Shown here: piece by piece, positions 26,640 through 26,800 of the stretch | How the letters are laid out: each line of letters opens with the position of its first letter | How positions within the stretch are numbered: position 1 is the stretch's first letter | Made by a program: the position numbers and the translations under genes | Source of the DNA: an uncultured Lachnospiraceae bacterium | GTDB taxonomy: Bacteria; Bacillota; Clostridia; Lachnospirales; Lachnospiraceae | Direction: 5' to 3' | Length of the DNA stretch: 32,405 bases | Assembly (NCBI GenBank): GCA_910586095.1 | Contig: CAJUHQ010000024.1 | Coordinates: forward strand, 1-32,405 | The notes under the pieces: generated by a model | Databases searched by the model: none | What the model saw: the letters and a program-made list of their open reading frames with translations, nothing else | Told to the model about the DNA's origin: nothing

Positions 26640-26800
26640 GATATGGGATTAATGTGAAATATAAAATTTCACCCATCCTGATTGGAGTGCCCGCTAAAGC
26701 GGGCAGATGGGAGTTAGTGTGAAATATAAAATTTCACACTAATGATTTGAGTTGCGGCAAAGCCGCGACATGGAGGTTAGCGTGAATCATGGAGGTTAGT
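26640..26800 (+). repeat. REP/MITE-like element, ~2.5 tandem units, forward orientation; overlaps the last ~8 codons of the histidine kinase
   Basis: It reads GTGAAATATAAAATTTCAC-CCATCCTGATTGGAGTG-CCCGCtaaaGCGGG-CAGATGGGAGTTAG-TGTGAAATATAAAATTTCACA-CTAATGATTTGAGTTG-CGGCaaaGCCG-CGACATGGAGGTTAG-CGTGAATCATGGAGGTTAG. Confidence 0.75.

Follow-up and report, generated by a model that had tools for sequence, protein, structure and literature searches.

MIRUs have been described as apparently mobile elements that insert at start codons while the expression of the target gene is preserved (PMC12548453; PMC3184786). Their units of 40-100 bp are often tandem, lie in intergenic DNA within operons and are transcribed together with the flanking genes (PMC12548453; PMC3184786), an organization that the repeat family reported here resembles. 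The REP2 elements of Neisseria and IR-A/IR-B of Borrelia are similar to it in another respect: they have no terminal inverted repeats, contain two internal stem-loops and place a ribosome-binding site (RBS) and start codon immediately 5' of ORFs (PMC3184786), and we find the same placement. A Firmicute parallel is provided by the BOX elements (boxA-boxBn-boxC), modular mosaics with a tandemly variable middle module; they also have a predicted RNA fold, adjoin genes, affect expression and are used in strain typing (PMC3049150). The REP/BIME and REPIN-RAYT systems share with our repeat the short, GC-rich intergenic hairpins arranged in mosaics, and the association with recombination and assembly breakpoints.

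The repeat considered here was encountered in a 32,405-nt stretch of DNA from an uncultured Lachnospiraceae bacterium; this whole stretch is called the window. The repeat is real, very abundant, modular and built of two hairpins, and it is common to many gut Lachnospiraceae species. To judge by Rfam and the literature that could be searched, the family is undescribed. Literature searches retrieved no description of it, and Rfam 15, applied at the gathering threshold, gave nothing in the window and only tRNAs in 18 loci (142 kb), sub-threshold matches being at chance level (Yfr1, 23.9/38 bits; RAGATH-12, 18/75 bits). At a probability of roughly 0.6, we read the family as a Lachnospiraceae-wide set of short, non-autonomous, modular and spreading intergenic repeats that are transcribed within host mRNAs and bring a translation-initiation region of their own; transcription and the use of the Shine-Dalgarno (SD) sequence are read from the nucleotide sequence. 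Because the element lies in the sense orientation and abuts start codons, its nearer relations in kind are MIRU and Neisseria REP2, not REP or RUP.

A modular repeat in the window and in other Lachnospiraceae

A sequence-only reading of the window had noted a unit of ~70 bp at five loci. Nhmmer and CM searches recovered it at all five, with a measured unit of 64-66 nt, and added a sixth, degenerate copy at 19102-19189(+) that had been overlooked. The proposed AT hairpin, GTGAAAT-N5-ATTTCAC, was likewise upheld, with four matches against 0.39 expected. Allowing up to three mismatches, CAGATGGGAGTTAG has 10 matches in the window against 2.2 expected, a number reached in 0 of 100 shuffles. Related modules lie at 1-39, 21691-21835 and 4397-4422. 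The features are as follows, with the support for each.

1-39 (-): 5' part of an M3 long-hairpin module (TGTGAAAaatAGTTCTAAGGCAGCAAAAGACACTGCCTAAGAAC...), cut by the window start
40-105 (-): complete unit, AT hairpin (H) then SD module (S, A-type); nhmmer E=8e-23, CM 102.6 bits
106-150 (-): degenerate SD-like leader ahead of the first unit (AAGATGGGAGAAAG ... AAAATGGGAGATAG); matches at 104-117 and 135-148, 5'-edge profile
4397-4422 (-): M2 module fragment (TAAGTGTGAGAAGAGTTTCTAACCAC) at the 3' end of ORF 4401-5360; inverted repeat, 96% complementary to 21691-21716
16579-16621 (-): S-only half unit (TCCTAATTTGTAT-GCCTGCtagtGTAGGC-AGATAGGAGTTTCA) immediately 5' of the cheR GTG (16576-16578); nhmmer, CM
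16622-16683 (-): degenerate full unit with degenerate AT hairpin, CATCTTGATTT, GCCGATTGTTCAGGC and AGATAGGAGTTAT; nhmmer 16623-16675, E=8e-6
19102-19189 (+): M2 3' fragment and degenerate S module (GATCATGATTTAGGATTCTGTAAAGCAAAATCATGGGAGTTAG); nhmmer E=9.5e-5, CM 33.2 bits
21634-21693 (+): 5'-truncated unit with a mutated SD (CAGATGGTAGTAAG); nhmmer E=8e-15, CM 61.5 bits
21691-21835 (+): two M2 long-hairpin modules (GTGAGAAGnnnTTCTAAC ... CTGTTTCACAGAGAAnnnCTAAGTCTCAC); direct repeat, period 65
26639-26650 (+): degenerate remnant of the S 3' end (GGATATGGGATT) ahead of the first unit; sequence, 5'-edge profile
26651-26717 (+): unit A, H and S, with A-type GC stem CCCGC/GCGGG; nhmmer E=1.4e-19, CM 89.9 bits
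26716-26780 (+): unit B, H and S, with B-type GC stem GCGGC/GCCGC and SD GGAGG; nhmmer E=1.7e-9, alignment, fold
26781-26799 (+): remnant CGTGAATCATGGAGGTTAG; sequence
32330-32365 (+): 5'-truncated S module opening the right-edge array; nhmmer E=1.6e-8
32364-32405 (+): H hairpin with the beginning of the following S, truncated at the window end; nhmmer E=5e-8

The stretch 26640-26800 had been described as 2.5 tandem units. The repeat is indeed present there, but as two units of ~68% identity followed by a 19-nt remnant, and a TRF run over the window did not call the array at 26651-26799 because the two units are too divergent. Unit A reads GTGAAATATAAAATTTCAC-CCATCCTGATTGGAGT-GCCCGCTAAAGCGGGC-AGATGGGAGTTAG; unit B has the same AT hairpin, followed by ACTAATGATTTGAGTT-GCGGCAAAGCCGC-GACATGGAGGTTAG, and a break in synteny relative to strain L072 falls 3' of that hairpin. 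The array at 16579-16683(-) amounts to 1.5 degenerate units. The unit at 40-105 is identical to one at a different locus in L016. The full M3 module, of which the window holds only a part, occurs in two contigs of the same species (L077 and L079) and also in L008, L055, L041 and L065, and the M2 module follows arrays in L016, L028, L047, L049 and L086 as well.

Three of the six window copies are antisense to both flanking genes, and two antisense copies have become part of ORF 3' ends. The antisense copy at 19102-19189 contains the last 13 codons and the stop of an MVP-like ORF, while the last eight codons and TAA stop of the histidine-kinase ORF come from the antisense strand of the end of unit B (26777 onward) and the remnant. 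The copy at 21634-21693, also antisense, sits between the MCP terminator and the start of the MVP-like gene. The array at 32330 lies on the + strand, in the sense orientation relative to a + strand gene just beyond the window; its continuation in L086 consists of (H-S)x2, M2, a terminator-like hairpin and a B-type S, and leads to the ATG of a same-strand gene of 135 aa. The window both begins and ends inside arrays.

Across copies, the consensus is AG-yGTGAAAT-(loop)-ATTTCACr-c-ATCCTGATTTGTAy-GCCyGC-tgaa-GCrGGC-AGATGGGAGTTAG. In order, the unit comprises AG-yGTGAAAT-loop-ATTTCAC, cATCCTGATTTGTAy, the GC hairpin and CAGATGGGAGTTAG. The last of these had been taken for a plain conserved tail; it is instead a Shine-Dalgarno sequence placed 5 nt ahead of GTG AAA, so that the 3' end of the unit runs GGGAG, 5 nt, then GTG AAA. 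The AT hairpin is a perfect palindrome with no G-U pairs. Its place can be taken by longer palindromes with the same GTGARA...TYTCAC ends (M2, M3) or by a terminator-like hairpin, GAAAAACGC...GCGTTTTTC, and the GC hairpin has two forms, A-type (GCCyGC) and B-type (CCGCC, GCGGC, ATTCCGC). In the window's species, the composite S-(H-S)n-long hairpin-terminator-like hairpin-S(B)-ATG stands upstream of three different genes. Variants of the hairpin loop are genome-specific. The best-conserved part of the unit is the non-palindromic half, made of the anti-SD-like segment and the SD, the conservation of the 3' segment being partly forced in that the motif used for fetching the loci lies there. A consensus scan of the window units for promoters and terminators found neither conserved inside the unit, and the only AT-rich promoter candidate is the hairpin loop, which is variable between genomes.

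The earlier description of the repeat as abundant and dispersed extends well past this contig. A scan for the 20-nt junction motif CAGATGGGAGTTAGNGTGAAA, using one genome per species, found at least 69 loci in at least 26 species assemblies; the copies are thus neither limited to the window, the motif being found in the genomes of many other species, nor segments of one larger duplication. Among the matches listed, every carrier whose record gives a family belongs to the Lachnospiraceae; the majority are mouse-gut MAGs or Acetatifactor, while Parablautia intestinalis and Anaeromicropila herbilytica are represented by isolates. Many of the motif matches listed are located near the ends of contigs. 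With a profile derived from three units of the window, 136 units in 86 arrays were detected among the matches listed; these arrays hold one to four units (two to four in 40 of the 86), always head-to-tail and with a period of 62-66 nt. The proposed placement at gene boundaries also stands, only one array among the matches listed being inside an ORF. One contig of the window's own species carries eight arrays in 43.3 kb, or ~1 per 5 kb. Searches of viral contigs, a phage collection and a plasmid collection yielded no match, and a phage or plasmid vehicle is therefore not supported.

Chance similarity, artefacts of assembly and an array of the CRISPR kind are scarcely credible explanations of these copies. 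A period of 63-66 nt does resemble CRISPR spacing and many copies are located at contig ends, but sequence conservation extends over the full 64-66 nt period, from unit to unit and from locus to locus, arrays recur in independent assemblies and in isolate genomes, and motif counts exceed those of shuffles. The arrays have no unique spacers, which refutes a CRISPR array. Two further candidates were rejected: operators of the CRP/FNR, Rex and LacI/CcpA types, considered for TGTGA...TCACA, on grounds of their consensus spacing, and integron attC sites, as arrays are found in housekeeping operons throughout the genome.

Placement before genes and predicted RNA structure

Among the matches listed, 63 of 74 arrays run in the same direction as the downstream ORF, and between co-directional ORFs the sense orientation prevails by 43 to 3 (estimated binomial p ~5e-10). 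A start codon often follows directly: 26 of 70 arrays among the matches listed abut an ORF of at least 60 codons, mostly as GGGAGTTAG-n-GTG/ATG. This abutment is not caused by the scan motif, because the proportion is similar among 16 usable arrays that do not contain it, five of which abut an ORF at 0-9 nt and two more within ~33 nt. The abutting ORFs include those for LarC, CoaX, PFOR-gamma, a sugar ABC ATPase, ArgJ, TrkH, an NrdG-like activase, a UDG-family protein and PepF; the cheR of the window, with its GTG start (16576-16578) preceded by ...GCCTGCTAGTGTAGGCAGATAGGAGTTTCA, also belongs to the genes that the element enters directly. These downstream genes are functionally unrelated. Pfam matches of the abutting ORFs start mostly within the first 23 residues, and at residues 2-16 in LarC, CoaX, ArgJ and PFOR-gamma. 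The start codon is GTG in 13 of 24 abutting ORFs among the matches listed, a proportion that clearly exceeds what is usual in Firmicutes and suggests that the element often supplies the start codon too.

Judging from this arrangement, the element appears to supply the ribosome-binding site of downstream genes. Units stack head to tail in such a manner that either the GTG of the next unit or the start codon of the host gene comes directly after each SD. Since an array ends exactly at the start codon of a gene, the SD of its last unit would serve that gene, and the element could for this reason sit in operons and leaders without silencing the genes downstream.

The unit has four parts, namely the AT-rich hairpin that opens with GTG AAA, cAUCCUGAUUUG, the GC hairpin and GAUGGGAGUUAG, the last being SD and 5-nt spacer. 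The segment cAUCCUGAUUUG resembles the anti-Shine-Dalgarno end of 16S rRNA, and some copies read CACCUCCU, which we take to be a match to the 16S rRNA anti-SD sequence. In RNA, the anti-SD-like segment is expected to pair with the SD, and sometimes with the start codon, across the GC hairpin. Folding predictions are consistent with such a structure. The sense RNA of a unit is predicted to form two adjacent hairpins at -25.1 kcal/mol, versus -13.1 for shuffled sequence (z = -4.8), and the antisense strand folds less well (-19.7 kcal/mol). The second hairpin extends outward in the predicted fold, where cAUCCUGAUUU pairs with GGGAGUUAG, and sometimes with GUG too, leaving the SD masked. The SD is paired in the predicted folds of A-type, B-type and degenerate cheR copies; in the cheR copy, UCCUA pairs with UAGGA.

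The GC hairpin had been said to keep its stem-loop shape while its sequence varies. The shape is kept, but the variation is mostly that of one covarying pair (CG 36, UA 23, UG 5, CA 5), to which a second stem type in B-type units (GCGGC/GCCGC and similar) is added. As a test of strand, the asymmetry between G-U and C-A in this stem was uninformative, at 5 versus 5. Among 126 distinct CM-aligned copies, double changes are found at 14 of 20 pairs, compared with 7.8 in shuffles, and at 12 of 13 pairs in the two hairpins, to which the alignment was itself fitted. The outer helix (anti-SD:SD), which was left out of the CM, is ~92% paired. Most of its changes are transitions that preserve pairing (C-G to U-G 27 times, U-G to U-A 12 times), and two or three registers fit. 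One comparison of units showed no double compensatory change in it, and the CM alignment showed only isolated double changes (one cell at each of two pairs). Because double changes are few and the register is ambiguous, the outer helix is plausible but unproven.

A conserved two-hairpin predicted fold with a masked SD, lying in the sense orientation 5' of genes, is also what one would expect of a vertically inherited cis-regulatory RNA leader marking out a regulon, whether as riboswitch, as thermometer or as protein-binding site. We regard this explanation as very improbable, given that the downstream genes are functionally unrelated, that Rfam has no match, and that the units are tandem, variable in number, clustered by genome and absent from orthologous sites. 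On the preferred reading of a spreading repeat with its own translation-initiation region, a short upstream ORF may unmask the SD. In 56 of 83 distinct units, exactly eight codons lead from the hairpin GTG to the conserved TGA of ATCCTGATT. Where the hairpin is 18 nt long the linker measures 6 nt, and where it is 19 nt long the linker measures 5 nt, which holds the GTG-TGA distance constant at 27 nt; the ORF ends ~35 nt ahead of the next SD. Translation begun at the GTG of the hairpin would end after eight codons, at the UGA within AUCCUGAUU. A ribosome at this UGA would occupy the anti-SD-like strand, open the helix and hand initiation to the next SD, and in an array each translated mini-ORF would unmask the SD that follows, in a relay, until the gene is reached. 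In 12 of the 83 units the ORF has two codons, too early a stop for any unmasking, and the constant 27-nt distance could be explained equally well by a pure spacing constraint.

Gain, loss and proposed spread

The element is present at some sites and absent from the corresponding sites of related genomes. The cheR homologues of three other species (L082, L083 and L084; 78-81% identity) have no element and possess a GAGGAGG SD of their own, in the context GAGGAGGcagaaGTG in two species and GAGGAGGcataaggATG in the third. Similarly, the element lies upstream of argJ in L037 and is absent in L044. Copy-number polymorphism between strains, which the sequence-only reading had named as a check, is seen at the array just right of the window, where three same-species assemblies have two H-S units and a fourth has one. 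Neighbouring units in an array have SNPs homogenised between them. Among the matches listed, mean unit identity is 0.877 within a genome versus 0.841 between genomes, and 35 of 72 units have their nearest neighbour in the same genome. Synteny between assemblies breaks exactly inside arrays in two instances, which recombination and metagenome mis-joins both fit.

Several of these observations could also be accommodated by a non-mobile host 'standard part' (hairpin plus SD) for intercistronic regions that gene conversion keeps uniform in each genome, changes its unit number by slippage and has a role in mRNA processing or stability or in translation insulation. Variable unit number and homogenised SNPs between neighbouring units are in keeping with this idea, as are a half unit downstream of rfbC that is near-identical (near 100%) in L033 and L050, where the flanking genes are only ~70% identical, and the tsaE-tsaB junction, which is occupied by element sequence in two species. 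In addition, the cheR-cheB spacer of L083 has GC hairpins directly 5' of SDs, with the A-type unit absent there. We nonetheless consider such a part distinctly unlikely, in view of the presence and absence of the element at cheR and argJ, its hundreds of unrelated sites, including gene 3' ends and antisense copies, and the difficulty of envisaging conversion between sites that share few flanking bases.

The edges of the arrays carry a further signature. At the 5' edge of 51 arrays, TAG stands one base ahead of the first GTG (T in 50 of 51, A in 51 of 51, G in 45 of 51) and is preceded by a purine-rich, SD-like stretch. TAG-N-RTG is found at both array edges, but with a different N and different adjoining bases on either side, and the array edges showed no target-site duplication. 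Many arrays open with an S module truncated at variable points, which, together with the abutment on start codons, indicates a fixed 3' junction and a variable 5' junction. We infer that copies spread within genomes in this form, with the 3' junction fixed at a start codon and the 5' end variable and often truncated. An all-against-all BLASTP comparison of the 448 ORFs of the 69 loci revealed no recurrent transposase or other enzyme candidate. Spread by HUH-type insertion after TTAG, by microhomology-mediated copying or by gene conversion is possible.

The near-invariant TAG 1 nt ahead of the 5'-edge hairpin, and the TTAG with which every unit ends, are such that insertion after TTAG could build head-to-tail arrays. 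They are among the points in favour of a selfish hairpin element acting at the DNA level, of REP/RAYT or IS200/IS605-derived type, in which an HUH (Y1) transposase reads the hairpin and the adjacent motif; the SD-likeness and the sense bias would then reflect surviving insertions, or insertion specific to one replication strand in genomes where most genes point away from the origin. The perfect AT palindrome without G-U pairs, the palindromic M2 and M3 modules with the same GTGAAA...TTTCAC ends, and the equal frequency of U-G and C-A intermediates in the GC stem (5 and 5, hence no strand preference) agree with it as well. It is, however, an unlikely explanation: there is no GTAG, there are no inverted pairs of the REPIN type, and no RAYT or TnpA is encoded among the 448 ORFs of the loci. 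Moreover, both orientations occur in one oriC-proximal stretch where nearly all genes face the same way, and the best-conserved half of the unit is the non-palindromic one, which is used by real genes.

The spreading repeat with its own translation-initiation region, which we prefer, can be taken further, in a composite form that we put forward tentatively and would on balance bet against. On this extended reading, the element would be a self-spreading, portable translation-initiation cassette that homes to gene stop/start junctions (TAG-N-RTG), leaves its 5' end variable, replaces the native RBS and relays initiation through tandem mini-ORFs, each unmasking the SD that follows. It would occupy hundreds of sites per genome, would have rewritten the translation of a considerable fraction of Lachnospiraceae genes and would be the main substrate of rearrangement between strains. 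Its manner of spreading would be new, neither DDE nor HUH, for example template switching or an RNA-mediated process with 5' truncation.

Significance and comparison with known repeats

Lachnospiraceae dominate among gut commensals, and the greater part of their genomes consists of metagenome bins. A repeat every ~5 kb breaks such assemblies, as illustrated by the window and by several contigs that end inside arrays; it also marks synteny breaks between strains and misleads the calling of start codons and small ORFs. The arrays, at the same time, offer VNTR-like markers for strain typing. The housekeeping genes coaX, larC, argJ, porG and cheR would receive their RBS from the element, possibly through a relay of masked SDs and upstream ORFs. 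The family is in this respect a natural test bed for translational coupling, and it suggests an insulating RBS part for the engineering of these hard-to-manipulate bacteria.

The repeat had been called REP/MITE-like and reminiscent of REP, BOX and RUP. The BOX-like modularity is borne out, but the definitions of REP and MITE fail. There is no GTAG foot: the GC hairpin is flanked by TTTGTAy and CAGATGG, and what is conserved is TAG-N, ahead of the AT hairpin. Inverted pairs of the REPIN kind are absent, all 40 multi-unit arrays among the matches listed being head-to-tail. Nor are there the terminal inverted repeats of a MITE, since the unit starts with AGyGTGAAAT and ends with GGGAGTTAG, and only the internal hairpin modules are palindromic. 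REPs, with their GTAG, inverted pairs and RAYT gene, lie mostly downstream of genes, and none of these traits is found in the loci listed. BOX differs in having terminal modules that end in inverted repeats and a proposed IS partner, ISSpn2, and the accessible text of its description reports no SD or start codon (PMC3049150); the sequences are unrelated.

With MIRU the agreement is closer. Tandem units in operons, oriented with the flanking genes, characterize both, as do filled and empty sites in related genomes (here cheR and argJ) and a copy number that varies between strains. The differences lie in the translation signals, in sequence and in number. The internal ORF of MIRU has a stop that overlaps the start of the gene (-4 spacing), whereas the Lachnospiraceae unit brings a separate SD, and its mini-ORF stops ~35 nt upstream, inside the anti-SD-like segment. 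Overlap of stop and start is not general here, the GTGA type being confined to a few units, such as unit A of the window. There is no sequence similarity, the phylum is different, and 40-50 MIRUs per genome compare with a density of ~1 per 5 kb in the Lachnospiraceae repeat. REP2 is likewise distinct, being 120-150 bp long, present in ~26 copies, not tandem and equipped with a promoter, while the Lachnospiraceae unit of 64-66 nt is stacked in arrays and no conserved promoter was found in it.

The family is thus best filed as a new variant among the small interspersed intergenic repeats that carry translation signals, and it would be the Firmicute counterpart of MIRU and REP2. Unlike MIRU, REP2 and BOX, it brings together tandem stacking, an SD in every unit, a predicted fold in which the SD is masked, and a mini-ORF; compared with these three, its density is also far higher, and its distribution takes in many species.

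Gene ends and the repeat arrays

The repeat, a 64-66 nt two-hairpin unit arranged head to tail, reaches into the coding sequence of neighbouring genes. In the histidine-kinase ORF, both the TAA stop and the final 8 codons are supplied by the repeat read in antisense (26777-26800), which suggests that the native 3' end of this gene has been replaced through insertion or rearrangement. The antisense copy at 19102-19189 (+) likewise contains the stop and the final 13 codons of an ORF resembling the Major Vault Protein (MVP).

ORFs whose 3' ends overlap the repeat
26777-29050 (-), histidine kinase
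19149-21614 (-), MVP-like ORF of 821 aa, matching PF11978 (Major Vault Protein shoulder domain) at E=1.2e-20

The 821-aa ORF also carries a weak vault repeat and is flanked by an MCP gene on one side and by mnmG on the other. Its product is a bacterial MVP-like protein in a chemotaxis and origin-proximal neighbourhood.

Chromosomal setting and orientation

The presence of rsmG and mnmG, together with parA/parB nearby, points to an origin-proximal location for the window. The genes of this region run nearly all in one direction, yet copies of the repeat occur in both orientations.

Origin-associated genes
8031-8774, rsmG
17113-19032, mnmG
L077:11707-12549, parA/parB, just outside the window in an assembly of the same species

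Hairpins and other repeats

Within composite arrays, a terminator-like hairpin, GAAAAACGC-N8-GCGTTTTTC, precedes a T-rich run and is followed immediately by a B-type module, bearing the Shine-Dalgarno sequence, and the ATG of the gene, with no room for a promoter. This hairpin may be an attenuator. At two comparison loci, tRNA gene clusters lie directly upstream of arrays and in the same orientation (L007:3167-3813, L055:7-336).

Hairpins and additional repeats
L077:7330-7400, L086:5400-5470 (minus strand) and L072:2200-2300, terminator-like hairpin in same-species assemblies
21841-21870, bidirectional terminator-like hairpin beyond the 3' end of the MCP gene, AAAAACGCC...GGCGTTTTTT, beside the longer palindromic M2 modules
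9464-9548, inverted repeat I7 (31 nt, 87% complementary, 23-nt gap), close to where an MCP-like ORF begins
16729-16840, separate 54-nt tandem repeat in the mnmG-cheR spacer (TRF score 150, 2.1 copies), with related copies extending to 16866

Differences between strains

In the mnmG-cheR spacer, strain L075 has one fewer unit of the 54-nt repeat. When assemblies of the same species are compared, the break points in synteny fall exactly within the arrays: the array of L072 (2150-2400) runs into a flavin-reductase gene, whereas its counterpart in the window (26716-26800) abuts the kinase, and the array cut by window position 1 (L077:7290-7400) is followed by another gene in L078. These breaks may reflect either true recombination or contigs wrongly joined in metagenome assembly. 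Just to the right of the window end, L086 (5509-5673) and L087 differ by one 65-nt unit, and the SNPs of this array look homogenised across adjacent units; the variation resembles that of a VNTR.
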